A stretch of DNA of 50,795 nt from a virus. Under the pieces are notes generated by a model. It made no database searches and was not told the DNA's origin. It saw only the letters and a program-made list of their open reading frames with translations. Shown piece by piece: positions 37-50,795 of the stretch. Every line of letters begins with the position of its first letter. Within the stretch, counting starts at the first letter, position 1. The translations under genes and the position numbers were made by a program. The stretch lies in UHGV virus genome UHGV-0203461; one strand, written 5' to 3'.

Positions 37-402
37 ATGATTGGATATAGAATAAAGGAATTAAGAAAAGAAAAAGATATTACTCAAAAAGAACTTGCAA
101 CTTTTTTAGGTCTTACTCCTAAAATGATTTCTTTTTATGAGAAGGAAGAAAGATTTCCTCCACATGACATAATTTTAAAATTATCAGATTTTTTTAATGT
201 ATCTACAGATTATTTGCTTGGAAAGGTCAATGTAAAAAATATAGACAATCTTAGTGAGTTAGAGCTAATTGAAAATCTAAATTTCTCTGATGATATAAAA
301 GAAGCTTTAAAACTAATTAGCGAATTAAGTCCTTCTAGTCAAGAAAAAATGTTCAAAATAGCAAAAGTATTTCTTGAAGAAGAACTTAATGAGAAAAAAT
401 AA
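37..402 (+). CDS. XRE-family HTH transcriptional regulator, cI-like prophage repressor candidate
   Basis: N-terminal XRE helix-turn-helix (IKELRKEKDITQKELATFLGLTPKMISFYEKEE). RBS AAAGGTGG upstream. Divergent from the cro-like gene at the other end of the window. Confidence 0.8.
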   Translation: MIGYRIKELRKEKDITQKELATFLGLTPKMISFYEKEERFPPHDIILKLSDFFNVSTDYLLGKVNVKNIDNLSELELIENLNFSDDIKEALKLISELSPSSQEKMFKIAKVFLEEELNEKK

Positions 403-1264: not shown

Positions 1265-1666
1265 ATGAAAAAAGATATATATGTATATCCTGCTATACTA
1301 AGTTATGATGCAGATGGTATCTCTGTAGAATTTCCCGATTTACCAGGTTGTTACACATGTGGAGATACAACAGAAGAAGCCTTGAAAATGGCAAAAGAAG
1401 CCTTAGGATTACATCTGTATGGGATGGAAGATGATGATGACATAATTCCGGATGCAACTACTATAGATAACTTAAATTTAGAGAAAAATCAAATACCAAC
1501 TTTAATAGAGATATATATGCCAATTCACAGAAAAGCTATAGAAAATTACTCTGTTAAAAAGACTCTTACTATTCCCCAATGGCTTAATAGGGAAGCTGAG
1601 AAACATAAGGTTAATTTCTCTCAAATACTTCAAGAAGCTTTAAAAAATCACCTTAACATTCATTAA
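1265..1666 (+). CDS. hicB: HicB-family antitoxin
   Basis: 133 aa. N-terminal HicB/UPF0150 fold signature (YPAILSYDADGISVEFPDLPGCYTCGDTTEEALKMAKEAL) and a C-terminal DNA-binding tail. Downstream partner of hicA. Confidence 0.7.
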   Translation: MKKDIYVYPAILSYDADGISVEFPDLPGCYTCGDTTEEALKMAKEALGLHLYGMEDDDDIIPDATTIDNLNLEKNQIPTLIEIYMPIHRKAIENYSVKKTLTIPQWLNREAEKHKVNFSQILQEALKNHLNIH

Positions 1667-1724
1667 ATATTAGAGCAGTTCAACTGCTCTTTTATATAAA
1701 AACTTATAAAGGGAGTGTACATAT

Positions 1725-2843
1725 ATGAATATCAAATCAGCTTTTATAAGAAAAAGAGGGGAAAAATTTCATGTATATGTGGAGTACATAGAAGAAATGA
1801 CTGGCAAGATAAAACAGAAAAGTTATGGGAGCTATGAAAAGAAAAAGGATGCTGAAAAACATTTAATTGAAATAAAATCTACTATAAATAGTAATAAGTT
1901 TATTACTCCAAGTAAAACCACTCTTGTAGAGAGGTGTTATAAATACATAATGTCAAATGAAAAAAATTGGTCTCCTTATACAGTTATAAATAGGAAATCT
2001 TGGGTTAAGAATTATATAGAACCTTTTTTTAAAGATACAAAACTTATAGATATAAATCCTGTTTTAATTCAAACTTTTATAAATACAACTTTTAATAATT
2101 GTACTTTTAGTAGCTCAAAGATAAGGTATCGTTTTATAAGTTCTGTTCTGAAAGAAGCATATAGATTAAGAGAAATAAATGAAAATCCATGTGATTTTGT
2201 AAAACTTCCTCATAAAGAAAATTCTTCTAAGATTGAAATATATAATAGAGAAGAAGCTTTATTGTTGATAGAAAAACTAAATAATAGTAACATAGAAATA
2301 CCTATTTTACTAATGTTGACATTAGGTTTGCGACTAGGAGAAGCTACTGGACTTAGATGGACTGATGTTGATTTAAATATCGGCTCTGTAAGTGTAAGTC
2401 AAACACTTATATACGCTAATAATAAAATAGAATTTAAAGAACCTAAAACATCAAAATCAAGAAGAACATTGTCAGCTCCTGATGAACTAATAGAAAAACT
2501 TAAGATTGAAAAATTAAGACAAAATAAATTAAAATTACAAGGAATACTTAAAAATGAAAATAATTTAGTTTGTTTAAACAAAGATTATAATCCATTTTTA
2601 CCAGCTACATTAAGAAAGTCTTTTCATAGATTTATTAAAAAAAATAACTTAAAAAACATTAGGATGCATGATTTAAGACATACAAATGCAAGTTTGCTTT
2701 TATTAGGAGGTACTAACATGAAAGTTGTTTCAGAAAGGTTAGGTCATACAGATATACAAATAACTATGAACAGATACTCTCATGTTTTAGAAGAAATGGA
2801 TAAAAAAGCATCTGATAATTTAAGTAAAATATTATTCAAATAA
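1725..2843 (+). CDS. int: tyrosine-type site-specific integrase
   Basis: 372 aa. C-terminal catalytic motifs (HDLRHTNASLLLLGG...RLGHTDIQITMNRYSHV) typical of phage integrases. Confidence 0.9.
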   Translation: MNIKSAFIRKRGEKFHVYVEYIEEMTGKIKQKSYGSYEKKKDAEKHLIEIKSTINSNKFITPSKTTLVERCYKYIMSNEKNWSPYTVINRKSWVKNYIEPFFKDTKLIDINPVLIQTFINTTFNNCTFSSSKIRYRFISSVLKEAYRLREINENPCDFVKLPHKENSSKIEIYNREEALLLIEKLNNSNIEIPILLMLTLGLRLGEATGLRWTDVDLNIGSVSVSQTLIYANNKIEFKEPKTSKSRRTLSAPDELIEKLKIEKLRQNKLKLQGILKNENNLVCLNKDYNPFLPATLRKSFHRFIKKNNLKNIRMHDLRHTNASLLLLGGTNMKVVSERLGHTDIQITMNRYSHVLEEMDKKASDNLSKILFK

Positions 2844-2855
2844 ATGATTACTGGC

Positions 2856-3164
2856 TGTCAGTTAAATGTCAGTTGAACCTAAAAAAATAGGTTTTGTCAG
2901 TTAAATGTCAGTCAGTTAATTTATAATAATTTCTTTTAAATATCGCTAAAACTACACGTTTTAACATTTATTTATACTTATTTATAAGTATTTATTATTA
3001 TACTTTGGAATAGTTCCCAAACGACTTTTAGTGTTTAAAACCATTGATTTCACGGCATTTTCATTTTTTACTTCAATCTTTTTGTCAGTTAAATGTCAGC
3101 AAAACATTTTATCCACAATTTTTATATAACTTTTCCACAGTTTATCCCCAGCTTTATCCACAAA
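2856..3164 (+). repeat. attP-like repeat field downstream of int: 3 copies of TGTCAGTTAAATGTCAG (each holding two TGTCAG half-sites) plus 3 copies of TTTATCC(A/C)CA
   Basis: Exact 17-mers at 2856-2872, 2895-2911 and 3083-3099. TTTATCCACA-like repeats at 3109-3118, 3140-3149 and 3155-3164. Non-coding and AT-rich. Confidence 0.45.
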
Positions 3165-3194
3165 AAGGTAGCTACTATTGAGTGCTACCTTTTG
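3164..3194. terminator. bidirectional hairpin, 9-bp perfect stem AAAGGTAGC/GCTACCTTT
   Basis: Flanked by an A-run on one side and a T-run on the other. Lies between int and the convergent BlaI-like gene. Confidence 0.45.
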
Positions 3195-3202
3195 GCATAT
3201 TC

Positions 3203-3589
3203 TTATTCTTCATCTTCTTGCAAACTTCTTAACCATTTTTCAAGCGCATCTATTTTATCAATACTTACCTCTTCTTTATCATGTAATTTTGATATTAACT
3301 GTGATAAAGGATTATTATGTAAACCTCCAAATAGTTTTTTAGTTTCTGATTTTAAGTATTCTTTTTCTTTTATTAATATTGTATAATGTGTGTGTTTACC
3401 TATTTTTTGAGAAGCTAAAAAACCTCTTTTAGTTAACCTTAATAAAAGTGTTAGTGTTGTAGTTTGTTTCCATTTATATATTTTTTCCATTTCATCTGCC
3501 ACATCTTTTGATATTACAGTTTTATAACCAGTATTCCATATGTATTTCATAATCTTGAACTCTGAATCTGGTAATTTTTTATTTAGCAT
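3203..3589 (-). CDS. BlaI/MecI/CopY-family winged-helix transcriptional repressor (orphan, no BlaR1 sensor)
   Basis: 128 aa. It aligns over its full length to the penicillinase-repressor pattern (SEFKIMKYIW...TTLTLLLRLTKRGFL...YTIL...). Confidence 0.65.
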   Translation of the reverse strand: MLNKKLPDSEFKIMKYIWNTGYKTVISKDVADEMEKIYKWKQTTTLTLLLRLTKRGFLASQKIGKHTHYTILIKEKEYLKSETKKLFGGLHNNPLSQLISKLHDKEEVSIDKIDALEKWLRSLQEDEE

Positions 3590-3628
3590 AATATCCCCTT
3601 CTTTCTATTAACATATAAAAATATAAAA

Positions 3629-3910
3629 TTATTTTTTTCCTAGTTTCTGCATACTTTCTATAAATACTTTTATTTGTTTCTCTGTCTTTTCTTCTTTTTT
3701 ATGTATAGTTGTAAATACTTGTGTAAAAAAATTATCATATTTACTTACATCTTTTTCTTCTTTTATTACATCTAAATATTCTTTTTTAGTTACTAATACT
3801 TCATAGTTTAATTGAAAACCAACTCTCTTCTTTTTTAATATTCTCATTTTTACTAATCTTCCAAGTAAAATCTCTGTAGTGCTTTTTCTCCACTTATACT
3901 TTTCTTTCAT
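3629..3910 (-). CDS. second BlaI-like paralog, N-terminally truncated or degenerate
   Basis: 93 aa. It is homologous to the C-terminal two-thirds of the neighbouring BlaI-like protein (YKWRKSTTEILLGRLVKMRILKKKRVGFQLNYEVLVTKKEYL against YKWKQTTTLTLLLRLTKRGFL...YTILIKEKEYL). The upstream in-frame extension has no start codon. Confidence 0.4.
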   Translation of the reverse strand: MKEKYKWRKSTTEILLGRLVKMRILKKKRVGFQLNYEVLVTKKEYLDVIKEEKDVSKYDNFFTQVFTTIHKKEEKTEKQIKVFIESMQKLGKK

Positions 3911-4439
3911 TGCTACTTCTATTTCTTTTTTAGATAGAGTAGACTTTTCCCTTCACATGTACTCCATCAACATTAATTCGCCCCTGCGTAATTTACTTTC
4001 TACCTCTTGTCGCTCCATTTATGTCACTTCCTTAATTCGTCTAACTTAAATTAATAATAGGAGCTTTTTAGAACAAAAACTATAGGTAATTTTTACCAAA
4101 TATTCTACTGTTTTAGTTTGTTTTCTTAGAAGAAAAATAACTTTCATATCTATAAAATTATTCAACTTTCAAACTATCCTGTTGAATAATAACTAATTCT
4201 ATTGTATTATTTTAGTTGTAGAATAAAACTAAATCGGCAAAACTAGAGAAATTTAGTGGCATAAATATATATGAACTAAGAATTGTAAAATGAGTTATAA
4301 GTTATATCATCCAGTTATCAAAAACATATACTCTTTTTGTTTTTGTGAAAGTTTTTTAGGTGGCTAATAATATATATACTTAGAGATAAAATAAAATATA
4401 TTTCTAATATTCATAGTTTTATTTTTTCTCAAAATGCGA

Positions 4440-16521: not shown

Positions 16522-18864
16522 CTAAACTATTCCCTCAGCAGATACAACCATGGCATCATTCAGTTTCTCAGTTAAGACATTTACTATGCCGTCGACATCT
16601 GCCTCACTATTTATGTTGTTTGTATTGTTCATATCAATTTTAATGTTGACTCCTGTAAATCGATTTATTACCTCCTGCTCTGCAATATCTCTAAGATATT
16701 TTAAATCTTCTTGACTTTTATCCATTGTTTTAGCCATTTTTGCAGTATTTCCTGCGGTGTCTTTTGCTCCTTTGGCTGCATCATTGAGAGGAGAATTTAA
16801 TCCTGCTGAGCCTATTCCTTCACCAAGTCCGTATTTTTTATCCCAAAGGTCATCTAATCCTAATTTTTTCTTTGCATCTTCTGCTATTTTACTGATATCA
16901 AAAGTATCTTTCAATTTGTTTTGTAATTGATGTCCTACGTCATATCCTTTTATAAATTCTGACTTTAAATTTTTGTACTCTACTAATTCTGGTTTCCATG
17001 CTTTAGGCTCAGGCGGTTTTTGAATGGGTTTAAATGTTGTTTTTGTACCAATTACAGTATTTACTTTTTGAAATTCTTTCATTTGTGGTAAATCAATTCC
17101 TGGAATTTTATTAATCTGTTGTACTAACCAATTCAATCCTTTTACAGCTATATTAACAGCTTTTATAATACCATTTGCTAGATTGGTAGCAAATTTATCA
17201 AAAGCTTTGTCTAAATTAACACCTGCCTTGAGTCCTGCGTTAGCCATATCAATAAAAAAACATTGTACTGCATATAAACCAGTTCTAAAAGCATTTGCTA
17301 TTCCAACTACACAAATATTTATCGCATTTACTATCCCTGAAATTACGTTATAAACGACTGCACATAACCAATACCAAGCTCCAACTGCAAGACTTATTAC
17401 ACTTATGCTTGTTCCTGCAAAATGATTATACACAGCTACCAATATAAATACAGCAGATATTACTGCAATTATACCTAAAACTACCCACGTTAGTGGACAT
17501 GCATATAATGCCGCATTTAAACCATATTGTGCTATAATTTGTCTCCATGTTGCTCCTGTGGCTAGGTCATGCATAATGGCTGTTTGAGCTAGTTGAAAAT
17601 CAAACCATTTTTGAGATAATAATGCAATGGAATTTGCAATTGCTAGTCCTAGTACTGCTGTTTTGTATAATGTTAATGCTCCTACAATCCCCAAAATTAC
17701 AGGAGATATTATACTCCAATTTTGTGCAAATATATTAGCAAGGTTTAATGCTTGTGTTATTATCCAGCCTAGTGCTTGTGAAATTAAACTTATCCCAACA
17801 ATCATTGTGTTTGAAAAACTTTGAAAAGCTGGGCTCCCTAATATACTTATAATTCCATTAAAAATGTTATAAGCAACATTTCCAAGTACATACAAAGAGT
17901 TTATAAAATTATCTATAAAGGTTCGAAATCCCTTACTAGACATAGACTGTTCAATTTTTTTCTGTATAACACCAAATATCATGATTGCATTATTTTTAAT
18001 TGAAGTCCAAATTTGAGAAAATGTGTAAGGCATTTTTTCAAACTCTGCATTGGTCTGCTCTGCTGCTGCAAGTAATGAGTTTTTTACAATATCTGCTGTT
18101 AACATTCCCTCTGATGCCATTCCTCTTATTTTTCCTATGTCCACGTCCAAATAATCTGCAATCGATTGGATGATGTTAGGTGCTGACTCAAACACAGCAT
18201 TCAGTTCCTCACCTCTTAATACGCCAGAACTCAACCCTTGGGTTAGCTGTAACAATGCCGAGTTCATTTCCTCAGTACTTGCGCCTGCTATTACAAATTT
18301 TTTGTTTAATTGCTCTGCAAAACCTACAATTTCTTTTGTACTGCTAAACGCCTTTCCTGCGTTCATGCCTATACGACTCACTATTTGTGCAGTATCTAAG
18401 TAAGATGCTCTTGACCTTTCAGCTGATTGAAATATCATTTTATTAAGTCCAGCATCTGATTGTTGCCCATCATTTATCATGCCAAGTCTCGCATTAGTAC
18501 TTGTCATCTGGTCGCTTAAATTTCCTAGACCTCCTAATGTTCTTATACCTAAATAAGTTGCTGCTAGCTTCTTTGCACTTCCAACTAATCTATCTGTAGA
18601 ACTTGCACCCTTATTTATATCCTCATTAAGTTTTCGCTGTTGATTATCTGATTCTCTTATTTGTCGTTCTAATCTATCAAATCCAGCTTCTGCTCTTGCT
18701 AGTTCTTCTCTAGCTGTTCTAATACTATTAGCATCTATAGCATTACTAGATGTTCTTTGTAATTGCTCGAATGAACTCAGTACTATATTCATAGCATTAG
18801 TCATATGCCGAAATGCAGGTGTCATTCCGTCGAAAATTCGGATAGATGTCTGTATCGTTGCCAT
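16522..18864 (-). CDS. tail tape measure protein
   Basis: 780 aa. Coiled-coil N-terminus, central hydrophobic TM-like block, Gly-rich C-terminus. Position after the tail chaperones. Confidence 0.85.
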
Positions 18865-18896: not shown

Positions 18897-18928
18897 AAAA
18901 GCACTCACTAATTTTTAGTAAGTGCTTT
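18897..18928. terminator. hairpin AAAGCACTCACT-loop-AGTAAGTGCTTT, first member of a recurring terminator family
   Basis: Near-perfect 12-bp stem flanked by A/T runs. Lies between the SHOCT gene and the tape measure gene. Confidence 0.45.
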
Positions 18929-18933
18929 CTGTA

Positions 18934-19704
18934 TTATAAATTTAGTAATTCTTTCTTCTTAGTATTAAATTCTTCATCTGTTATTGCTCCTAAGTCTAAC
19001 AATTCTTTTAATCCCTTTACTTGTTGTATTGCATCATTAGAATTATTTTGTATATTAACAGCTTCATTATCCTTTACAATTATTGCTAAAACAGATAATA
19101 TTTCTTGTGCAGAAGAATATGCCATTTTGTAAATTGAAGAATTACTTTTAGTTCTTAATTGTATCAGATTTACATAAACATTAGGATTACTTAAATTATT
19201 TAATGTTATTTTTATCTTAAGACTATCTATGAAAGCTTTTGTTGTTCTTTTAGCTGTTACTCCTCCAACAACAGCACCTACTCCTCCAAATAAAGCTCCC
19301 CCTGCTAAAGCTCTTCCTATCCCTCCTTTAGTCACAGTTTCGCCATTTTCTAGAAGTTCATATTCTATAACATCACTGTAATTATAAACATTTAAATTCA
19401 CTTTTTCTCTATTAAACCCATTTAAAACAATAAATTTCTTATTATTATCATCAAATTCCATAAATTTTAATATTTTTTTTGTAGGATTAAAATTTTTAAG
19501 CTCTTTTTCTTTATCATCTTTTGATTCAATAGCCTTCTCGACCTCTAATTTAGTTGGTAACCCACGATATAAAGTATTTCCTGGAGTAAAGGTGGCAACT
19601 GCATATTTCTTAAAACACTCTTTACACAACCATCCATCAGCTATTTTTTGTTTTCCTTTTTCTCCACAAATACAACAATTATCTTTACTTCCAAACAATC
19701 CCAT
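18934..19704 (-). CDS. zinc-ribbon (DUF4428-like) / glycine-zipper / SHOCT-domain protein; moron
   Basis: 256 aa. N-terminal CCICG...CKEC, a central GRALAGGALFGGVGAVVGGVTA glycine zipper, and a C-terminal SHOCT motif (LKELLDLGAITDEEFNTKKKELL). Confidence 0.5.
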   Translation of the reverse strand: MGLFGSKDNCCICGEKGKQKIADGWLCKECFKKYAVATFTPGNTLYRGLPTKLEVEKAIESKDDKEKELKNFNPTKKILKFMEFDDNNKKFIVLNGFNREKVNLNVYNYSDVIEYELLENGETVTKGGIGRALAGGALFGGVGAVVGGVTAKRTTKAFIDSLKIKITLNNLSNPNVYVNLIQLRTKSNSSIYKMAYSSAQEILSVLAIIVKDNEAVNIQNNSNDAIQQVKGLKELLDLGAITDEEFNTKKKELLNL

Positions 19705-19783
19705 AATATTACCCCCTACGCAATTTTATAAGATTATTATACTATATAAGTAAAATTTTTACATTATAATCACATCCTTTCAA

Positions 19784-19819
19784 TAAAAAAACACCTACTT
19801 TTTAAGTAAGTGTTTTTCA
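19784..19819. terminator. hairpin AAACACCTACTT-TTTTA-AAGTAAGTGTTT
   Basis: Same motif family as the hairpins at 18897, 21229 and 28486. Lies between the antirepressor and the SHOCT gene. Confidence 0.4.
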
Positions 19820-19982
19820 TTTATATAATTAATTTCTTATTTATACTTTGATTGTTTACAATATATATCTACTATTTGTTTGAAAACATAAAAGTTCTCT
19901 TTATCTTCTTGTATATTTTTTAGGCGAGAAATAAAACGTTCTTTTTCCTCACTACATACATCATTTAATAAGTTATTTTACA

Positions 19983-20804
19983 TTACATTGCCTGCTTATA
20001 TACAACATGATAATTTTTCTTCTCACCTTGTATCTTAGCAGGTCTATTATTTTCCTCTATCCAATTTCTTATTTTATCTATTACACTTTGTGAATACTTT
20101 GTTGTAGTACCATTCCAATTATCCTTATTTGCTAAAACTATAAGTTTTTCTTCTTCTTTAATATCTAATTTCTTAATAATCTCACAAACTGCCACAAAAG
20201 CAGGTTTATTAGTTTTAGAGTAAATATTTAACTTGGTTGCAATTTGTTTTGTATCAAAGAAATGTTCTTTTTCTTCAATCTCCAAAGGCAACTCTATTCC
20301 TGCCTTTTTATAGATAGTCTTTGCTGTAAGTAACTTTGCTTTTTCATCTATTCCAGCACCATTTAGAAATGGAGTCAAAATTTCTATTGTTTTATTAACT
20401 GTATCTAGACTTTCTATTTCATTTGCCTTGTCTCGTAGTACTTGAGGGTTAGCATTGTTAGTTATGTATGCACCAGTTTGTCGAATAGCTGGTAAAACTT
20501 CTTTTGTAACCCAATTCTTAAAATTTTTAGCTGTCTCTAACTTGCTTCCAAATATCAGAGAATAAAGTCCACTCTCATTTATTAATGCAGTTTGAGTTTT
20601 GACCATGTTCCCATTTTGGGAATGTGCTATCATTTCAAATATTTTATCATCATCATCAACATGACTTGAAACAGCTTTACTAGGGTTAGCATAACCTAAT
20701 GTCTCTGCTACATCCTTACCAACAAACCAAATTTCATTATCTATATCTATAGTTCTTATCTCTCCAAAATCTTCATTTTTAAATATTTGTAAGTTATTCA
20801 TCAT
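19983..20804 (-). CDS. phage antirepressor (Bro-N N-terminal domain, KilAC C-terminal domain)
   Basis: 273 aa. N-terminus NNLQIFKNEDFGEIRTIDIDNEIWFVGKDVAETLGY (Bro-N), KilAC-like C-terminus. Confidence 0.75.
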   Translation of the reverse strand: MMNNLQIFKNEDFGEIRTIDIDNEIWFVGKDVAETLGYANPSKAVSSHVDDDDKIFEMIAHSQNGNMVKTQTALINESGLYSLIFGSKLETAKNFKNWVTKEVLPAIRQTGAYITNNANPQVLRDKANEIESLDTVNKTIEILTPFLNGAGIDEKAKLLTAKTIYKKAGIELPLEIEEKEHFFDTKQIATKLNIYSKTNKPAFVAVCEIIKKLDIKEEEKLIVLANKDNWNGTTTKYSQSVIDKIRNWIEENNRPAKIQGEKKNYHVVYKQAM

Positions 20805-20890
20805 ACATACTCCTCCTAAATTTAATTTGAAAGAAGTTTCTCTATATGATAAAATATTTCATATAGAAGATTACTTCTTTGTTGGAAATA

Positions 20891-20928
20891 GAGCATTCAA
20901 ACTTTGGTCGGGGAGAATGCTCTATTTT
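20891..20928. terminator. 11-bp perfect inverted repeat ATAGAGCATTC-N16-GAATGCTCTAT followed by TTTTTGTTATTTTT on the + strand
   Basis: Perfect dyad between the RHH gene and the antirepressor. May be an attenuator/terminator or a protein-binding site. Confidence 0.35.
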
Positions 20929-20930
20929 TG

Positions 20931-21101
20931 TTATTTTTCTAAAAGTAAATGGATTCCCTGTCTTATAGCCTCTGCTTTTGTAAGGTTATTTTTTTTACAG
21001 TATTCATCTAATTTTTCATTAGTTTCATCATCTACTCTAACCTTAATATCATTAGTTTTAGGGCTTCCTACAACAGGTCTTCCTATTTTTTTAGGACTCA
21101 T
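20931..21101 (-). CDS. CopG/Arc-type ribbon-helix-helix protein, 56 aa (MSPKKIGRPVVGSPKTNDIKVRVDDETNEKLDEYCKKNNLTKAEAIRQGIHLLLEK)
   Basis: Absent from the ORF track because it is under 60 aa. RBS GAGGTG 6 nt upstream. Classic RHH beta-strand/helix pattern. Immediately upstream of the antirepressor. Confidence 0.55.
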   Translation of the reverse strand: MSPKKIGRPVVGSPKTNDIKVRVDDETNEKLDEYCKKNNLTKAEAIRQGIHLLLEK

Positions 21102-21112
21102 GTTATCACCTC

Positions 21113-21162
21113 ACTTTTGAGTTCCATAATTAAATTATATAGTTTTGGAACTCAAAAGTCAA
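21113..21162 (-). promoter_or_regulatory. consensus sigma-A promoter TTGACT-N17-TATAAT (- strand) overlapped by a 14-bp perfect inverted repeat ACTTTTGAGTTCCA-N19-TGGAACTCAAAAGT
   Basis: On the + strand, AGTCAA at 21157-21162 and ATTATA at 21134-21139 are spaced 17 bp apart. The palindrome arms are at 21113-21126 and 21146-21159, covering the -35 box and the transcription start. Confidence 0.5.
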
Positions 21163-21228
21163 TAACTTATTCCAATTTTTTCTAATTATTTTACTCAACC
21201 GACCATTTTGAGCAAATTTGAGCAAAAC

Positions 21229-21257
21229 AAAAGCACTTACATGTTGGTAAGTGCTTT
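21229..21257. terminator. hairpin AAAGCACTTAC-ATGTTG-GTAAGTGCTTT (11-bp perfect stem)
   Basis: Same motif family. Preceded by the direct repeat TTGAGCAAA x2. Confidence 0.45.
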
Positions 21258-21373
21258 CTTATTTACAATTAAATTTATTCATCTAGTTAGATTCATCATT
21301 ATTTTGTATAAAAAATTTCATCTTTTTATTGACTATAAAAAATATTATAGGCAATATTTTTTCTAATTTGTGG

Positions 21374-21525
21374 TATAATAAAAACAAGAAGAACTACAAT
21401 CTATTTAGCGGTAGAGTGAAGTTCATAATTTTAAAAAATATAAATTATTTAAATTTGCGGAACTTTATTTTAAAACCAAGTTCCCAGCCACTTTTACTCT
21501 TGCCACGAGTAGAGTGGCTTTTTAC
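21374..21525 (+). ncRNA. putative antisense antitoxin sRNA of type I TA locus 2 (boundaries approximate)
   Basis: Extended -10 box TGgTATAAT at 21371-21379. Conserved leader AACTACAATCTATTTAGCGGTAGAGTGAAGTT. Terminator hairpin plus T-run at 21487-21529 inside the toxin ORF. Confidence 0.35.
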
Positions 21526-21606
21526 GTTTTTGATACATCTACAAACGATATATCCAATTAAACTAGCTATCAAGCTAGCTAATATACTAAGTAAAAAATT
21601 GTCCAT
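21445..21606 (-). CDS. type I toxin, small membrane peptide, 53 aa (MDNFLLSILASLIASLIGYIVCRCIKNVKSHSTRGKSKSGWELGFKIKFRKFK)
   Basis: Absent from the ORF track. RBS GGAGGTGG. Paralog of the 47-aa peptide at 4524-4667 (shared xEFLL..LASL.AS.I.YI..R.VKSHS pattern). Extended -10 box TGTTATAAT on the - strand at 21696-21704. Confidence 0.6.
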   Translation of the reverse strand: MDNFLLSILASLIASLIGYIVCRCIKNVKSHSTRGKSKSGWELGFKIKFRKFK

Positions 21607-21926
21607 ACTTCCCACCTCCTTTCATTAGGAAGTAGGTTTTATCCCAGTATGAACTCCACTCTATAAATTGTAGATTACATCTTCTTGCTACAATTATTAT
21701 AACATATAATTCTTACATATTTTACCTATATTTTATCTTCTTCTACTTCTTCTAGCTTCTTTAGCAGTCTTTTTTTCTTCTTTTATTTCTTCTTCTACTT
21801 TAATATCTATAGAAGCAGCAACAAATGCCCTCTCGAAGTCTGGTAAATCTGTATATTCATGTGGTTTCCATTTGAATTTATGAAGGCAATAATGAGCTAC
21901 ACTAGCATCATAATCGCCTCCTTCAA

Positions 21927-22367
21927 TTAGTTTTTTGCTTCTTCTACTTTATCCTCAAAAGTCCTATCAAAACCATTCACCTCTCCTACCTCACTTGAAA
22001 GGTCTGTATATTCACCAGGAGTTAACATTGTTGTTAATAGCTCCTCTGCCCCCATTACACCATAACTATTTTGAAGTTCTGCATCATGTAAATCTGGAAA
22101 TACTACAGTTTCTACACACAGTTTCAAAGTATAAGTATTAAAATCTGTTTCACTAGTGTATTGCCCTGTTGCTTTCCCTTTTTTATTTAGTACAGGTACT
22201 CTTATAGTTGAATCTTTTCTTAATTGTCTATCTCTATCTGAATCTATTGCTTTAAGTTCCCATTCGATTGCTTTTCCATCTTCTCCTATAAACCTTTCAC
22301 TTGCCACATACTTTCTATTCTCTACTTTTATTGCATTTTGACTTAAAAAAGCGTTTAAATCTCCCAT
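21927..22367 (-). CDS. tail assembly chaperone, downstream member of an XkdN-like pair
   Basis: 146 aa, between the tube and tape measure genes. Confidence 0.4.
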   Translation of the reverse strand: MGDLNAFLSQNAIKVENRKYVASERFIGEDGKAIEWELKAIDSDRDRQLRKDSTIRVPVLNKKGKATGQYTSETDFNTYTLKLCVETVVFPDLHDAELQNSYGVMGAEELLTTMLTPGEYTDLSSEVGEVNGFDRTFEDKVEEAKN

Positions 22368-45827: not shown

Positions 45828-46264
45828 TATTTTCCTCCTTTGATATACTATATTTGTAGGATATATCCTATATCTTTTTATGAAAGTTGGTGATATTATG
45901 CAGTTCAGTAAAGATATATTACATACTCTTACTTTAGAAATTCTTAAGGAAAAATATGATTTTAAAAGTTCTTCTGAAGAAGAACTTTTAAAACATTACC
46001 ATGAAATCTTTTTGAAACTTTCAGAAGTCAATAATAGTTTTTCTAAAGGTGATGGTCTCAGTGTCTTTAAACAAATGTAGGTACTAAATTATATTTAAGA
46101 GCTTCTTTGCAAAAATCTAAAATATCTTTTGAGGAAAGGATACTTTGTTCATTTTCATTCAATGTATTAAGTATCCTTTTAGCTATTTGTAACTCTTCTT
46201 TTGATAATATTAATTCCGTTTCATTATTTACATTGTTCACTACACTTTCAAATGAAATTTTCAT

Positions 46265-46517: not shown

Positions 46518-47156
46518 TTAGTTCTCAAAATAACTCAACTGCTTGTATGGTCTTTCTGACTTTATAACCTTTATACAATCATCTATAATTTGTATTAAAT
46601 TATTAGATGTGTCAAAGTCTATATCTTCCCATTTCTCCACTCCGAGAATTAGGAATAGCCTTGCTTTCACTTGGTTGTATTCTTTATTAGCTTTGTCTAT
46701 ATCCAGTCTATTCTTTATGTATTTAGAATACTGTTGTTTCTTAGAGCATGTTATCTTACACAACTTTTTATATTCTTTTATTGTTCCTTTTAAATCTCCT
46801 ATAGTTCCTGTAAGTTCTGTTATTACATTTTGTTGTGCTTGATATTGACCAGTTTGTCGAATAGTTGGAAGCACTTCATCAAATACCCAACTCTCAAACT
46901 TTTCTGCGTTTGGAAGATTTGAACCTACTATTAATCTGTAAACATCACCCTCAGTTATCAAAGCAATCTTAATACCATTAATTTTAAACCCCTCGTGTTT
47001 CACTACCCCTTTGCAATGTCTTAAAATTGCATCATTGGTATTTTTATAACCTAATGACTTTGCAATATCTTTTCCTACAAAGTAAGGCTTATTATCAATC
47101 TCTGCCATTCTTATTTGTCCAAACTCCATCTTTTCAAATATTTGTAAGTTATTCAT
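46518..47156 (-). CDS. Bro-N-domain antirepressor (start revised to the second ATG, MNNLQIFEKM...)
   Basis: RBS AGGAGG 8 nt upstream of the internal ATG at 47156. Bro-N N-terminus. C-terminal domain shared with 34754-35494. Start overlaps the RHH gene stop. Confidence 0.65.
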   Translation of the reverse strand: MNNLQIFEKMEFGQIRMAEIDNKPYFVGKDIAKSLGYKNTNDAILRHCKGVVKHEGFKINGIKIALITEGDVYRLIVGSNLPNAEKFESWVFDEVLPTIRQTGQYQAQQNVITELTGTIGDLKGTIKEYKKLCKITCSKKQQYSKYIKNRLDIDKANKEYNQVKARLFLILGVEKWEDIDFDTSNNLIQIIDDCIKVIKSERPYKQLSYFEN

Positions 47157-47325
47157 ACTTATCAACCTCCTGTTCATCTTTTAAGTCCTGTAAATCCTCA
47201 AATTCTTTCCATAAGATATTTATTATAAAAGCATTTTTACTTAATCCTTTTCTTTGAGATTGTCTATGTAGCTCTTCATTTAATTCGTCTGGCATTCTAA
47301 CAGTTACTCTCTTCTTTGCCGTCAC
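47149..47325 (-). CDS. ribbon-helix-helix protein, 58 aa (VTAKKRVTVRMPDELNEELHRQSQRKGLSKNAFIINILWKEF...)
   Basis: Absent from the ORF track. GTG start with RBS GGAGGTGG 7 nt upstream. Translationally coupled to the downstream antirepressor. Confidence 0.5.
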   Translation of the reverse strand: MTAKKRVTVRMPDELNEELHRQSQRKGLSKNAFIINILWKEFEDLQDLKDEQEVDKYE

Positions 47326-47820: not shown

Positions 47821-48633
47821 TTAACCTAACATTGATATTTGATTGTTCTTTTTAAACTTATTAATAAAGTATATTTGTCCCTTACCAGTAATCTTAGGTG
47901 TTTTAGTAATACTTGTATGACCATCTGGATGTACTCTTGTACCTTCTTTTGTTTCTATAACTCCTAAATCTACACTTTTTTGAGTTGGTGTATTGTAATC
48001 CTCACCTTTACGTTTTATTAAGTAACCATTATTTCTTAACCAGTCAAATAATCTATTTTGTCCTGTATCAATTCCATTTTGTCTAAGCAATTTTGCTAAT
48101 TCTCCAACTAGGATTGAATTGTCAGAAGACGCTACCGAATCAGCAAACAGTACTTTTGGTTGTTGTAACTGGATTACCTTATCCTTTTCTTGATTTTCTA
48201 ATTGTAGTTGTTCTTTTTCCTCAACTTCTATTAATAACTGTTGCAATGCTTCTTTGTACGTAGTTGGTAATTTAGGTTGCTGTTCATTTTCTTTTACTCT
48301 AAAATAGTTATTAACCAATTCTCTTTGTACTGTCCAAGCTAAATCATCTGTTAGAGATTTTACTAACATTAGATAACCACTTTCAGTTATTAGAATCCCA
48401 TTTGGAGCAAATTTACTAAAACCATACAACTCCAAGCTTGGTACGATTTTCGTACTGACCTCAAAATAATCAATATTTTCTATAAAGTATTTTTTATTCT
48501 CAGTAAAATTTCTTTTTGCTGTTCCTTCTGCCCTTTCATGAATTAAGTCAATTTCTTTAAATGTTACAACTCTTTCACCTTTAAACTCTTTAACTTGTAA
48601 TTTTTTATCATTTATTAAAACTAAGTTATTCAT
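47821..48633 (-). CDS. antirepressor (ORF6N N-terminal domain, KilAC C-terminal domain)
   Basis: 270 aa. Confidence 0.7.
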   Translation of the reverse strand: MNNLVLINDKKLQVKEFKGERVVTFKEIDLIHERAEGTAKRNFTENKKYFIENIDYFEVSTKIVPSLELYGFSKFAPNGILITESGYLMLVKSLTDDLAWTVQRELVNNYFRVKENEQQPKLPTTYKEALQQLLIEVEEKEQLQLENQEKDKVIQLQQPKVLFADSVASSDNSILVGELAKLLRQNGIDTGQNRLFDWLRNNGYLIKRKGEDYNTPTQKSVDLGVIETKEGTRVHPDGHTSITKTPKITGKGQIYFINKFKKNNQISMLG

Positions 48634-49666: not shown

Positions 49667-50458
49667 TTAATTTTTGCTTAAATCACTTGATATTCCATAT
49701 TTTAAAGCCATATCTTTTACAATAGCAACATACCCCTCTATTAGCTTCTTATCATCTTGTATTACATCTAGATTGTTAACTTTCTCTCTTTTAGATTCAG
49801 ATACACCTTCTTCTGCCATTTTTCTTCTTTTATTAATTAATCTTCTATGCAAATCAACTCCAAATCGCTTATTTAATAATTCATAACTTTCTGTTCTAAG
49901 CATATTTATATGTTCAAAACCACCTTGTTTTTTTGCTATTCTTGCAATTAGTTGATGTGTATTTGTTCTCCAACTATTTGAGTCTAATGAAACTACATCT
50001 TTTATTGTTTCAACCTCTGTCTTTGCTTCTAAAGCAATGCTATTTGCTTGATTAACTTGAAGTCTTAAATCTTTCATTTCTTTTAAACTTTCTATTAATA
50101 CATCTTCTATACAAGTTGGCTTATGTTGCTTAACTTTGAAATATGTTTCTTCTAAGTTATCAAACTGCTCCCAAGCTTTGTCAGTATCCAATATTTTGCA
50201 GTGTCTATTTGCTCCTCTTTCAGTCCAAAGATACATTTTTGAAGTAAATTTTAGGTTTTCATATTCTGTATGAATACCTTTAAAATTTTTTAAATCATCA
50301 CCTTGCAATAAAAAATAATGTTTACCTTCAATAAATCTATCTTTGTTATTGTTAAAATTGTTGCTTATATTTCTTGCATCTGTTTCATATACATCTGCTA
50401 GTTGCTGTGTAGTTAAAACTCTTTCGTTATTTCTTTCTATTACTTGTAAGTTATTCAT
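49667..50458 (-). CDS. ORF6N-domain antirepressor
   Basis: 263 aa. ERVLTTQQLADVYETDARNISNNFNNNKDRFIEGKHYFLL. Confidence 0.65.
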   Translation of the reverse strand: MNNLQVIERNNERVLTTQQLADVYETDARNISNNFNNNKDRFIEGKHYFLLQGDDLKNFKGIHTEYENLKFTSKMYLWTERGANRHCKILDTDKAWEQFDNLEETYFKVKQHKPTCIEDVLIESLKEMKDLRLQVNQANSIALEAKTEVETIKDVVSLDSNSWRTNTHQLIARIAKKQGGFEHINMLRTESYELLNKRFGVDLHRRLINKRRKMAEEGVSESKREKVNNLDVIQDDKKLIEGYVAIVKDMALKYGISSDLSKN

Positions 50459-50687
50459 ATTTTTCAGCTCCTTTTTCTTTAAATGTACTTTTAGTACAGT
50501 TGTTTTTCAAAAAAATATACTCTATTGAAGTATTGAAATAAGCTGCTATTTTTACAGCTGTATTTAGAGACGGTACTCTTTCGCCATTCTCTAAGAAAGC
50601 TATATACCTACTTGTAAGACCTAATTCAGCTCCTAACTGATTTCTACTTAGTCCTTTTTGTATTCTAAAATCTTTTAGTTTATTCAT
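50451..50687 (-). CDS. XRE-family HTH regulator, cro-like
   Basis: 78 aa. LSRNQLGAELGLTSRYIAFLENGERVPSLNTAVKIAAYF. Divergent from the cI-like gene at 37-402 across the window ends. Confidence 0.7.
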   Translation of the reverse strand: MNKLKDFRIQKGLSRNQLGAELGLTSRYIAFLENGERVPSLNTAVKIAAYFNTSIEYIFLKNNCTKSTFKEKGAEKYE

Positions 50688-50714
50688 TTTTTCACCTTCT
50701 TTTACTTTATCTTA

Positions 50715-50743
50715 TGTACTAATAGTACAGTACTATTAGTACA
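50715..50743. promoter_or_regulatory. two adjacent 15-bp near-palindromic operators TGTACTAATAGTACA / AGTACTATTAGTACA in the cro-cI intergenic region; third site TGTACTTTTAGTACA at 50485-50499
   Basis: TGTAC-N5-GTACA dyads seen directly. The third copy precedes the ORF6N antirepressor start. Confidence 0.45.
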
Positions 50744-50795
50744 TTGTCAATAGCTTTTTTAAAAAAAATGAGCTATAATTGATAATTAAGAACTA

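Follow-up and report, generated by a model that had tools for sequence, protein, structure and literature searches.

What binds the perfect inverted repeat that lies across a minus-strand promoter in a Clostridioides difficile phage, and what does it control? The window, i.e., the whole stretch of 50,795 nucleotides analysed, is a circular C. difficile myovirus genome of the phiC2/CDMH1 type, and the repeat belongs to a cassette inserted between the tail assembly chaperone gene and the tape-measure gene. The cassette is an accessory insert ('moron') with its own promoter, and its first gene encodes a 56-aa ribbon-helix-helix (RHH) protein. Our analyses suggest that the inverted repeat is very probably a pair of RHH binding sites for repression of the protein's own promoter. 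Moreover, this autorepression may act together with an antisense countertranscript (ctRNA) that lowers antirepressor expression; we assign a probability of about 0.8 to such a two-layer circuit. The protein-coding and promoter elements concerned are as follows.

21229–21258, both strands: bidirectional intrinsic terminator (12-bp stem, T-run on either strand)
21134–21162, minus strand: sigma-A type promoter of the RHH-antirepressor operon (best promoter match, 45-locus conservation)
21146–21159, minus strand: predicted operator site 1, the upstream arm (minus-strand reading ACTTTTGAGTTCCA; 45-locus comparison)
21113–21126, minus strand: predicted operator site 2, the downstream arm (minus-strand reading TGGAACTCAAAAGT)
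20931–21101, minus strand: 56-aa RHH protein, proposed repressor (Pfam, PHROG, AlphaFold2)
19983–20804, minus strand: 273-aa Bro-N domain protein, proposed regulated cargo (Pfam, PHROG)

On the plus strand, ACTTTTGAGTTCCA at 21113–21126 is followed, after a 19-nt spacer, by its exact reverse complement TGGAACTCAAAAGT at 21146–21159; the perfect 14-bp inverted repeat over a promoter that an earlier note had described is exact in both coordinates and sequence. This repeat is also the longest inverted one of the window (I1; 23-nt arms, 87% complementary, centred at 21136). Perfect 14-nt inverted repeats with spacers of up to 40 nt number three in the window vs. 0.025 per dinucleotide shuffle, which makes them roughly 100-fold rarer in shuffled sequence. 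The two arms flank the -10 box of the minus-strand promoter (TTGACT at 21162–21157, N17, TATAAT at 21139–21134). Site 1 covers the final 3 nt of the -35 box and the initial 11 nt of the spacer, its specific core being GAGTTCC (TGAGTTCCA), while site 2 begins 7 nt past the -10 box, adjoins the ribosome-binding site and would cover the 5' end (about +1 to +14) of a transcript that is predicted to start at about 21126–21127.

The promoter is an 11/12 match, the best one of the 19.5–22.5 kb region in our promoter scan. In this 29% GC genome, however, 11/12 matches are not enriched (5 observed vs. 4.4 in shuffles), and a lenient scan was likewise at chance (14 vs. 15.8 expected); since shuffled sequence is equally rich in such matches, we dropped the consensus match alone as support, and the promoter call relies on position and on conservation across genera, both hexamers being nearly invariant across 45 loci. 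The terminator at 21229–21258 shields the cassette promoter from upstream transcription and probably ends the mRNA of the adjacent type I toxin-like gene. PADLOC defence models gave nothing meaningful for the RHH protein, the Bro-N protein, the DUF4428/SHOCT protein or the small toxin-like ORF.

The strongest evidence comes from comparison with homologous loci. Approximately 45 of these, from C. difficile, Lachnospiraceae, Oscillospiraceae, Ruminococcus, C. perfringens plasmids, and Streptococcus phages and satellites, keep the same order of elements (-35, site 1, -10, site 2, ribosome-binding site, ATG) on a shared scaffold composed of TTGACT, a T-tract with site 1, TATAAT, 0–9 nt, site 2, AAAAGTGAGGTG and ATG. 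The RHH homologues encoded behind this scaffold are 35–100% identical, and the DNA 5' of the -35 box is unrelated between loci. Site 2 is the best-conserved element (TGGAACTCAAAAG), and the site 1 position is filled in the ~45 homologous promoters, with the core flipped in some of them. This comparison backs the auto-repressed operator geometry proposed earlier from the single sequence, with sites that flank the -10 box and touch the -35 box. The palindrome itself fared differently: its arms are exact here, but beside 16 distinct promoters with inverted cores there are 7 (representing 16 loci) whose upstream core is directly oriented, the core-to-core spacing ranges from 19 to 28 bp, and two loci with near-identical RHH proteins (L052 and L053) carry the core in opposite orientations. 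Because the 5–7 bp core is flipped in some loci, palindromy is not conserved, and the conserved unit, as judged from the aligned promoters, is two sites of ~9–15 bp rather than a 47-bp palindrome. Such variable spacing and orientation flips are unusual, since RHH repressors normally bind adjacent sites cooperatively.

These observations also bear on the idea that the repeat works as a nucleic-acid structure, either an RNA hairpin in read-through late transcripts or a DNA cruciform. The late operon must pass through this region to the tape-measure gene, and transcripts arriving from upstream could fold into a perfect 14-bp stem. We nevertheless regard a structural role as highly improbable, since the direct-repeat cores of 7 distinct promoters make a hairpin impossible and the sites are kept there, the spacer is 9 nt shorter in L014 and L025, and transcripts from the cassette's promoter do not include the upstream arm. 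Furthermore, no U-run follows the stem, the terminator scan did not call the repeat, and weak matches to microRNA-precursor models merely reflect the stem; on these last three grounds, with the microRNA-hairpin matches taken as spurious, the repeat was rejected as a terminator or RNA element.

Binding by a dedicated protein, as proposed for the RHH, is further suggested by how the two parts of the 14-mer behave. The outer ACTTTT/AAAAGT is common to all specificity classes and belongs to the constant scaffold (the -35 end with the T-tract, and the A-tract ahead of the ribosome-binding site), whereas the GC-containing core GAGTTCC is the repeated part, kept across genera and swapped pairwise between classes. 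We observed at least six protein/site classes (seven in the list below), in which the repeated sequence differs with the RHH beta-strand.

NDIKVRVD beta-strand: repeated site GGAACTC
DIRFSIRID beta-strand: repeated site ATGCGTGACAT, two copies
GSVNIRLD beta-strand: repeated site TTCGCGACACA / TGTGGCGCAA
NESIKVRFD beta-strand: repeated site TTGGAGTGCA / TGTACTCCAA
NVDVKVRFD beta-strand: repeated site TGGAACGCA / TGGAACACA
CDMH1-type protein: repeated site TCGCGATACA, two copies
S. pyogenes KLTVRIN beta-strand: repeated site ATGTCGACA / ATGTCGGCA

The adjacent 56-aa RHH protein had been named as the candidate ligand, and the site changes that track its beta-strand lend this proposal comparative support; we infer from them that the RHH binds both sites and represses the promoter. 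It might be argued that nothing binds and that the symmetry arose incidentally from the constraints which a promoter and a ribosome-binding site impose on AT-rich DNA, as promoter-like matches are common in the genome and the outer hexamers of the repeat are part of the scaffold of all classes. We find this barely credible, since the core is exactly the repeated, cross-genus conserved and pairwise-swapped part, and only 0.025 perfect 14-nt repeats are expected per genome.

A protein other than the RHH would be a further candidate. The window encodes CI-like (37–402) and Cro-like (50451–50687) helix-turn-helix proteins, and in phage P22 it is a second repressor rather than Arc that shuts off ant in the lysogen (PMC2629481); hence, the repeat could be the operator of a CI-like or Cro-like repressor, or of a host factor, that silences the antirepressor in the lysogen. 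The distribution of the site makes this very unlikely. The site moves with the RHH gene among unrelated elements (phages, plasmids, satellites) whose immunity regions differ, and its sequence switches along with the RHH beta-strand. Moreover, a copy search of the window (at most one mismatch) found no further copy of the 14-mer anywhere in the genome, the ctRNA promoter and the CI/Cro intergenic region included, and the latter region has a different palindrome of its own (50714–50744). Within the 50.8-kb window, the core 9-mer is likewise confined to the two operator sites, and therefore the regulator is presumably local and dedicated. Upstream of the cassette promoter we found no Mnt-like second repressor; the terminator and the type I toxin-like ORF are located there.

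The RHH gene lies directly downstream of site 2 (ribosome-binding site GAGGTG at 21112–21107, ATG at 21101–21099). Its product has an N-terminal arm, in which a G-R-P motif is invariant, followed by the beta-strand DIKVRVD and two helices. It matches Pfam RHH_1 (28.3 bits vs. a cut-off of 20.5) and phrog_876 'transcriptional repressor' (4.8e-17), and weakly the 'Arc-like repressor' phrog_582 (2.7e-4); the match to Pfam RepB-RCR_reg (PF10723) is weak for this protein (18.8 bits vs. a cut-off of 21), and the same family is precomputed for most of its homologues. In the AlphaFold2 model (pLDDT 83), an extended segment (17–23) precedes helices 24–36 and 41–54, and the closest solved structure, a marginal one (E 0.006), is SvtR, an RHH protein (2kel). 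By the fold topology of this model, the 56-aa protein can be placed among the ribbon-helix-helix (MetJ/Arc/CopG) repressors.

The second gene encodes the Bro-N protein (Pfam Bro-N 3.5e-29; phrog_2011 'anti-repressor Ant' 2.7e-127), for which the name antirepressor is an annotation; three further antirepressor-like genes are present in the phage. A gene of an antirepressor-type family lies downstream in 15 of 20 homologous loci, and the cargo behind the RHH and its sites may be Bro-N, Rha, AntA, ORF6N or KilAC, or sometimes none, often with a small ORF intervening before it. Since the cargo families differ among loci, the constant partner of the site is the RHH, not the cargo. The small plasmids of C. 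perfringens carry the RHH and two sites, and our own ctRNA model found no match in them; they were considered as the ancestral 'rep' context and rejected, as their downstream 440-aa protein is no recognisable Rep.

This variety of cargo is also relevant to the possibility that the RHH represses solely in complex with the Bro-N protein as co-repressor or toxin, as in type II toxin-antitoxin systems with conditional cooperativity. RHH antitoxins commonly autoregulate in complex with their partner. Furthermore, Bro/Ant proteins and their small DNA-binding partners have been likened to toxin-antitoxin pairs, and toxicity is on record for certain Ant-domain proteins (PMC2701414). Against such a requirement, the 56-aa protein is an arm and RHH domain alone, with no C-terminal partner-binding tail, unrelated cargo families or none at all stand behind the same RHH and site, frequently separated by the small ORF, and type II systems have no antisense RNA layer; obligate co-repression therefore seems quite unlikely.

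Such an RNA layer, which the earlier note did not contain, is predicted for the RHH-antirepressor intergenic region, where two further elements are located.

20849–20940, plus strand: predicted antisense countertranscript (ctRNA) gene (Rfam match span, promoter, terminator, covariation)
20805–20930, minus strand: sense-mRNA leader of the antirepressor gene (folding, comparison with relatives)

The ctRNA gene, placed between the RHH and antirepressor genes, matches Rfam RF00242 (ctRNA_pT181) over its full length (model positions 1–94) with 50.5 bits vs. a gathering score of 56 (E 1.3e-5 to 2.2e-6); no Rfam family reached its gathering score in the window. A promoter that begins upstream of the Rfam span (TTGAAA at 20827–20832, 17 nt, TGnTAAAAT at 20847–20855; 10/12 plus the TG extension in the promoter scan) would start an RNA of ~75–80 nt at about 20862, with its end expected at about 20935–20940, and a terminator hairpin (20886–20927) with the loop AAACUUUGGUCGGGGA is followed by a U-run. 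The 16-nt loop CAAACUUUGGUCGGGGAG is nearly identical to the RF00242 consensus CAAACUUUGGUCaGGGaG. Our own covariance model gave 28 matches in 25 loci, in unchanged position and orientation; across these 25 loci, the stem is 96% paired, with compensatory changes in 13 of 14 pairs, and the G-U pairs are valid on the antisense strand only.

In the leader of the antirepressor gene (fold z-score -4.7), the target hairpin A (20927–20886) is followed by hairpin B (~20880–20830), and an anti-ribosome-binding-site stretch, ACUUCUUU, is able to pair with AGGAGGAG (20817–20810). The pairing of CUUCUUUCAA with UUGAAAGGAG is conserved; in four relatives (L013, L016, L024 and L051) it is followed by U5-7 and then ATG, while in the window the pairing is present and the U-run absent, which makes translational control likelier here than transcriptional control. 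The ctRNA does not directly overlap the antirepressor ribosome-binding site. When the ctRNA-complementary stretch was forced to be unpaired, the predicted accessibility of the ribosome-binding site fell in 10 of 14 loci; in the window the fall was modest (0.34 to 0.18), the site being mostly paired even without the ctRNA. A consensus fold of 12 leaders recovered only the outer stem of hairpin B, with little covariation, as indels spoiled the alignment at the ribosome-binding-site hairpin; given this failure, the attenuator/anti-ribosome-binding-site model relies on inspection and on single-sequence folds.

Taken together, we propose the following circuit. Each arm of the repeat would be a binding site for RHH dimers, one between -35 and -10 and the other over +1 to +14, and occupation of either could exclude RNA polymerase or block open complex formation or promoter escape. 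By this negative autoregulation, the RHH, encoded first in the cassette, would set a low transcription ceiling for itself and for the Bro-N gene. The beta-strand DIKVRVD would read the 5–7 bp core (GGAACTC), in which specificity would reside, and the constant T/A tracts are perhaps contacted by the invariant N-terminal G-R-P arm. We also infer the expression and mode of action of the second component, as well as the role of Bro-N: a constitutive pT181-family ctRNA from the intergenic region would pair with the antirepressor leader and specifically lower antirepressor expression, in the window probably by favouring the hairpin that hides the ribosome-binding site, and in many relatives probably by inducing a terminator just ahead of the start codon. 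Upon entry into a cell that contains neither repressor nor RNA, an antirepressor burst followed by shut-off would be expected, and in the lysogen a tight, dosage-compensated silence. For a prophage, an antirepressor under mere autoregulation in the lysogen seems risky.

As an operator the repeat is unremarkable; the interest lies in the module around it. The literature searched, which omits most subscription journals, gave no description of a module of RHH, antisense RNA and antirepressor in Gram-positive phages. On comparative grounds, the portable cassette of repressor, antisense RNA and antirepressor gene appears to be widespread in phages of Clostridia and streptococci. We regard it as an even bet that a plasmid-style two-tier unit has been captured as a portable controller for antirepressor-type genes, with operator specificities that define secondary immunity groups, as a Gram-positive counterpart of immI. 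If true, temperate phages, phage-plasmids and satellites of Clostridia and streptococci would carry an RHH autorepressor of the Cop type, its operator specificity interchangeable, together with a pT181-family countertranscript; the many operator specificities, at least seven in this comparison, would determine which elements, whether resident together or incoming, are able to fire their antirepressors, and the near-invariant ctRNA loop would predict RNA-level cross-talk between modules. Such a counterpart of P22 immI would have arisen independently, from plasmid copy-control parts, and would link the evolution of plasmid copy-control modules to that of phage immunity modules. Antirepressors decide prophage silence, and C. 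difficile prophages affect toxin production and gene transfer; a dosage-compensating cassette would explain how a phage safely carries an antirepressor and how incoming phages or satellites could wake resident prophages or resist them. In addition, the family offers a natural series of matched RHH/operator pairs, with seven specificities, each in either orientation, on an identical promoter scaffold, which could be used to study the RHH recognition code and as orthogonal repressor/promoter parts for Clostridia and streptococci.

Each component has relatives among known systems. The omega repressor of pSM19035 is an RHH protein that recognises short asymmetric heptad sites in direct or inverted orientation, and it binds contiguous heptad arrays cooperatively. 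As with omega, the core is found here in either orientation (16 inverted and 7 direct promoters); unlike the omega arrays, there are only two sites, 19–28 bp apart. The arc operator of P22 is a single 21-bp operator bound by a tetramer, and the CopG operator is one pseudo-symmetric element at -35, whereas the cassette has two separated sites, 28 bp apart, that flank the -10 box.

In overall organization, the cassette resembles the 'ant moron' (immI) of P22, an accessory insert with the arc-ant operon (Pant/Oarc), the sar antisense RNA and mnt (PMC2629481). Similarly to immI, it is inserted inside a late/tail operon (PMC2629481), with the small RHH autoregulator first, the antirepressor gene next and the operator over the core promoter, where repression is presumed; a small antisense RNA from the repressor-antirepressor intergenic region, here predicted in silico, and a burst on entry followed by shut-off, also predicted, complete the likeness. 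Unlike immI, the cassette resides in a phage of a Gram-positive host and encodes a Bro-N type antirepressor, it has no divergent Mnt-like second repressor, and its ctRNA is not directly over the antirepressor ribosome-binding site. Homology to the P22 parts was not detected: a search down to E 1 gave no Rfam sar match, and the Arc-like PHROG is matched weakly.

The copy control of pMV158 by CopG and RNAII (PMC4485353, PMC5717011) and attenuation by the pT181 countertranscript (PMC5703833) are both documented. As in pMV158/pE194, a small RHH stands first in the operon and represses its own strong promoter (here as a prediction), an intergenic countertranscript would act against the second gene, the unrepressed promoter would give a burst in the naive cell (PMC4485353, PMC5717011), and RepB-RCR_reg (PF10723) matches are found among the RHH homologues; unlike those plasmids, the cargo is a phage antirepressor-type gene rather than a replication initiator, and the RNA is of the pT181 type, not RNAII. 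The RNA shares with pT181 RNAI (RF00242) the full-length match, the terminator hairpin and the near-identical 16-nt loop, and in many relatives a hairpin and U-run stand directly before the start codon, as in stem-loop IV of pT181 repC (PMC5703833). It differs in that its RF00242 score is under the gathering cut-off and the ribosome-binding-site hairpin of the window has no U-run; moreover, a Cop protein, which pT181 does not have, is present here, and the target is not a rep gene. Hence, with the ctRNA as a predicted second layer on RHH autorepression, the proposed circuit follows the logic both of P22 arc-sar-ant and of pMV158 CopG/RNAII.

All bases of the 14-bp palindrome reported in the earlier note were confirmed when the window was re-read: ACTTTTGAGTTCCA lies at 21113-21126 and its exact reverse complement at 21146-21159, with a 19-nt gap. 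The minus-strand promoter comprises TTGACT (21162-21157), 17 nt and TATAAT (21139-21134); the second arm starts 7 nt past the -10 box and is abutted by GAGGTG (21112-21107), followed by the ATG (21101-21099) of the 56-codon ORF for the ribbon-helix-helix (RHH) protein. Among the inverted repeats detected in the window this one is the longest, no other copy of the 14-mer occurs in these 50.8 kb at up to one mismatch, and perfect 14-nt inverted repeats with spacers of up to 40 nt number three, compared with 0.025 per dinucleotide-preserving shuffle. The promoter had been described as a consensus one, and it is indeed the best match (11/12) between 19.5 and 22.5 kb; however, 11/12 matches are no commoner in the genome than in shuffles (5 vs. 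4.4), owing to its GC content of 29%, hence the promoter call must rest on context and conservation.

The window is the circular genome of a temperate Clostridioides difficile myovirus, kin of phiC2, phiMMP01 and CDMH1, and its divergent CI-like/Cro-like control region runs across the window ends. The main features are:

37-402, plus strand, CI-like helix-turn-helix gene
50451-50687, minus strand, Cro-like gene
21229-21258, both strands, bidirectional terminator directly upstream of the RHH promoter
20931-21101, minus strand, 56-aa RHH protein (Pfam RHH_1 above cut-off; phrog_876 'transcriptional repressor', 4.8e-17)
20886-20927, plus strand, 13-bp hairpin, then T-run, of the predicted antisense countertranscript (ctRNA)
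20827-20855, plus strand, ctRNA promoter (TTGAAA, 17 nt, TGnTAAAAT)
19983-20804, minus strand, Bro-N protein (PHROG 'anti-repressor Ant', 2.7e-127)

The terminator insulates the RHH promoter. Between the two lies a mini-hairpin (CTCAACCGACCATTTTGAG, 21194-21212) whose loop, CCGACCA, is that of the ctRNA's sense target and, on the opposite strand, imitates the UGGUCGG loop of the ctRNA. This mini-hairpin is kept in CDMH1, phiCDKH02 and the homologous loci L027 and L029 irrespective of the RHH type downstream; it may be a decoy or mimic, or a scar left by recombination.

The RHH/Bro-N pair, here called the cassette, lies in the gap from the tape-measure gene (16522-18864) to an XkdN-like gene for a tail assembly chaperone (21927-22367), and this gap (18900-21930 in the window; likewise in loci L001, L002 and L003) is a variable accessory-gene ('moron') hotspot. 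In phiC2 it holds three unrelated genes, while in CDMH1 and phiCDKH02 a Bro-N gene stands behind a different small protein (RHH-like in CDMH1); CRISPR arrays (Rfam CRISPR-DR14) additionally adjoin the cassette in phiCDKH02 and L027. A 256-aa DUF4428 (zinc-ribbon-like) and SHOCT protein (phrog_888; 18934-19704, minus strand), 278 bp after the Bro-N gene, is kept in CDMH1 and phiCDKH02. On the other side, a 56-aa ORF (21445-21615, minus strand; phrog_738), probably 53 aa if read from an ATG inside it, combines a hydrophobic N-terminal part with a tail rich in lysine, contains a plus-strand terminator (21502-21518) and has the bidirectional terminator at 21229-21258 downstream; it looks like the type I toxin-antitoxin modules of C. 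difficile prophages (CD0956.2/RCd10 type; PMC5961336), and no Rfam family matched. Three more antirepressor-type genes lie on the minus strand of the early region (46518-47177, Bro-N; 47821-48633, ORF6N and KilAC; 49667-50458, ORF6N). The phage thus has four such genes, and calling the one in the cassette an 'antirepressor' is annotation only. Elsewhere in the genome, a HicB-like antitoxin domain protein (1265-1666, plus strand) adjoins the integrase gene (1725-2843), and the genome's two other perfect inverted repeats lie at 50714-50744 and 45960-45993 (15-nt and 16-nt arms); the former, between the Cro-like and CI-like genes across the circular junction, is probably the main immunity operator.

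A first search for homologues of the RHH protein returned 48 clusters and a profile search 1394 (50% identity, E up to 1e-3); the comparison covered 43 loci taken from collections of genomes and viruses, together with others that came from records of plasmids and phages. Essentially all of them carry the same scaffold 5' of the RHH gene: TTGACT, a T-tract with site 1, TATAAT, 0-9 nt, site 2, AAAAGTGAGGTG, about 5-10 nt and ATG. Sequence beyond the -35 is unrelated from genus to genus, and the downstream cargo families include Bro-N, Rha, AntA, ORF6N, KilAC and ORF6C (15 of 20 downstream genes are of antirepressor type and 5 are something else). Tandem duplicated modules (RHH or ctRNA plus antirepressor, twice) were seen in L018 (1866-3587), L020 (about 1290-4414) and L016 (3144-4993), the two copies in L018 having two different operator specificities. 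In a Streptococcus pyogenes M1 prophage (L057, Javan489, 1390-2780) an RHH gene with the two-site scaffold and a weak ctRNA-model match stands 5' of a 'putative antirepressor', and a pneumococcal satellite (L058, Javan736) has the same scaffold with a weak match; the RHH genes of these streptococcal elements are all annotated hypothetical.

Across the loci, proteins that differ in their beta-strand also differ in the sequence repeated at precisely these two places in the scaffold.

Beta-strand or protein, repeated site, and loci
NDIKVRVD-type (the window's type): GGAACTC; many loci
DIRFSIRID: ATGCGTGACAT, twice; L018, L044
GSVNIRLD: TTCGCGACACA / TGTGGCGCAA; second module of L018
NESIKVRFD: TTGGAGTGCA / TGTACTCCAA; C. 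perfringens plasmid
NVDVKVRFD: TGGAACGCA / TGGAACACA; C. difficile 132-kb plasmid
Unrelated small protein: TCGCGATACA, twice; CDMH1, phiCDKH02
KLTVRIN: ATGTCGACA / ATGTCGGCA; S. pyogenes prophage
Pneumococcal satellites: GACGACA / TGTCGTC

This switching is the strongest argument that the sites would serve as an operator and, along with the RHH gene being their sole constant partner, it favors the adjacent RHH protein as the candidate ligand, as had been proposed. A CI-like or Cro-like ligand is unlikely: the phage genome has the core 9-mer TGGAACTCA at the two operator sites and nowhere else, which suggests an autoregulator dedicated to this locus and not a global one, and the CI-like/Cro-like region bears a different palindrome of its own. 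We estimate the probability of RHH autorepression at roughly 0.8.

The palindrome as a unit, perfect as it is in the window, did not stand up to the comparison, as its symmetry is not kept across loci: the cores are inverted in 16 distinct promoters and direct in 7. Moreover, L052 and L053, which encode near-identical proteins, differ by a core flipped in place (GAGTTCC to GGAACTC) between identical flanks, which narrows the specific core to 5-7 bp inside a 9-mer with symmetric outer TG...CA. The direct-repeat promoters and this flip rule out that selection acts on a hairpin or cruciform. The outer bases of the 14-mer, ACTTTT/AAAAGT, are found in every specificity class and correspond to the end of the -35 box with the T-tract, and to the A-tract before the ribosome-binding site; thus, the perfect 14-bp symmetry in the window consists of a core plus constant flanks. 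These tracts turn each site into a pseudo-palindrome of about 15 bp (TTTTG-GAACT-CAAAA), whose AT-rich flanks may be contacted by the N-terminal arm with the family's invariant G-R-P motif, a low-confidence part of the predicted structure. Core-to-core spacing varies from 19 to 28 bp, so a fixed helical phase between two dimers is unlikely to be required; such unphased spacing is unusual among RHH repressors.

In the stretch that separates the RHH and antirepressor reading frames, the plus strand holds a good promoter, a hairpin and a T-run. Rfam RF00242 (pT181 plasmid countertranscript) matches full length at 20849-20940 (50.5 bits, E 1.3e-5; just short of the gathering score of 56), the 16-nt loop being nearly identical to its consensus, and five related loci, among them the ones whose small protein is of the CDMH1 type, give a match to this family at the equivalent place, likewise antisense. 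A covariance model built from six copies found 28 copies in 25 loci, all on the antisense strand and most directly past the RHH stop codon, with weaker copies in Streptococcus and plasmid loci. The stem is 96% paired, with compensatory changes in 13 of 14 pairs and a covariation score of 0.83, vs. 0.21 after shuffling and 0.10-0.22 in slid controls; G-U pairs that would be C-A on the opposite strand indicate that structure is selected on the antisense RNA. Its promoter is conserved as well (sense-strand CTTCTTTCAA, the complement of TTGAAAGAAG). A real and inhibitory antisense RNA appears likely.

The leader of the sense mRNA folds far below shuffled controls (z = -4.7). In its predicted fold the target hairpin is accompanied by another, whose 5' arm complements the ctRNA's 5' portion and whose 3' arm (CUUCUUU) can pair instead with the antirepressor ribosome-binding site. 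In relatives this alternative hairpin, CUUCUUUCAA...UUGAAAGGAG, comes before U5-7 and then directly ATG, which is the pT181 attenuator layout (PMC5703833); since the window has no U-run, a translational block is likelier there. When the antisense-complementary stretch was forced unpaired in refolds, predicted accessibility of the ribosome-binding site fell in 10 of 14 loci (0.34 to 0.18 in the window), a modest effect, and a consensus leader fold across loci was uninformative. These models suggest how the ctRNA may act on the leader.

Going beyond sequence anatomy and covariation, we infer that RHH dimers would occupy one site within the -35/-10 spacer and another at +1 to +14, blocking RNA polymerase and so autoregulating the RHH-antirepressor operon, while the ctRNA would selectively lower antirepressor expression. 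In a cell with neither repressor nor RNA, the strong promoter would fire and give an antirepressor pulse; as both build up, the cassette would fall silent and gene dosage would be compensated.

RHH operators that serve autoregulation are commonplace, and the use of short asymmetric sites in two orientations recalls the omega repressor, which uses its sites likewise. In the literature searched, with most subscription journals outside it, three things appear undescribed: a portable module that joins an RHH repressor to a pT181-type countertranscript and an antirepressor gene, its breadth (Clostridia and Streptococcus phages, phage-plasmids, satellites) and its series of matched protein/site specificities on one scaffold. 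The control logic itself has been demonstrated experimentally in P22 immI, likewise located within the late operon as an 'ant moron' (PMC2629481), and in pMV158 CopG/RNAII, where establishment in new hosts depends on unrepressed promoter activity (PMC5717011, PMC4485353). In operation the cassette would resemble P22 arc-sar-ant, yet it falls outside that family: it is without a Mnt-like gene, has no Rfam sar match and matches the Arc-like PHROG only marginally. With Cop/ctRNA plasmid copy control it shares the architecture, although its regulated gene is not a replication initiator, and a weak RepB-RCR_reg Pfam signal along with the pT181-type loop suggests that the two probably share ancestry.
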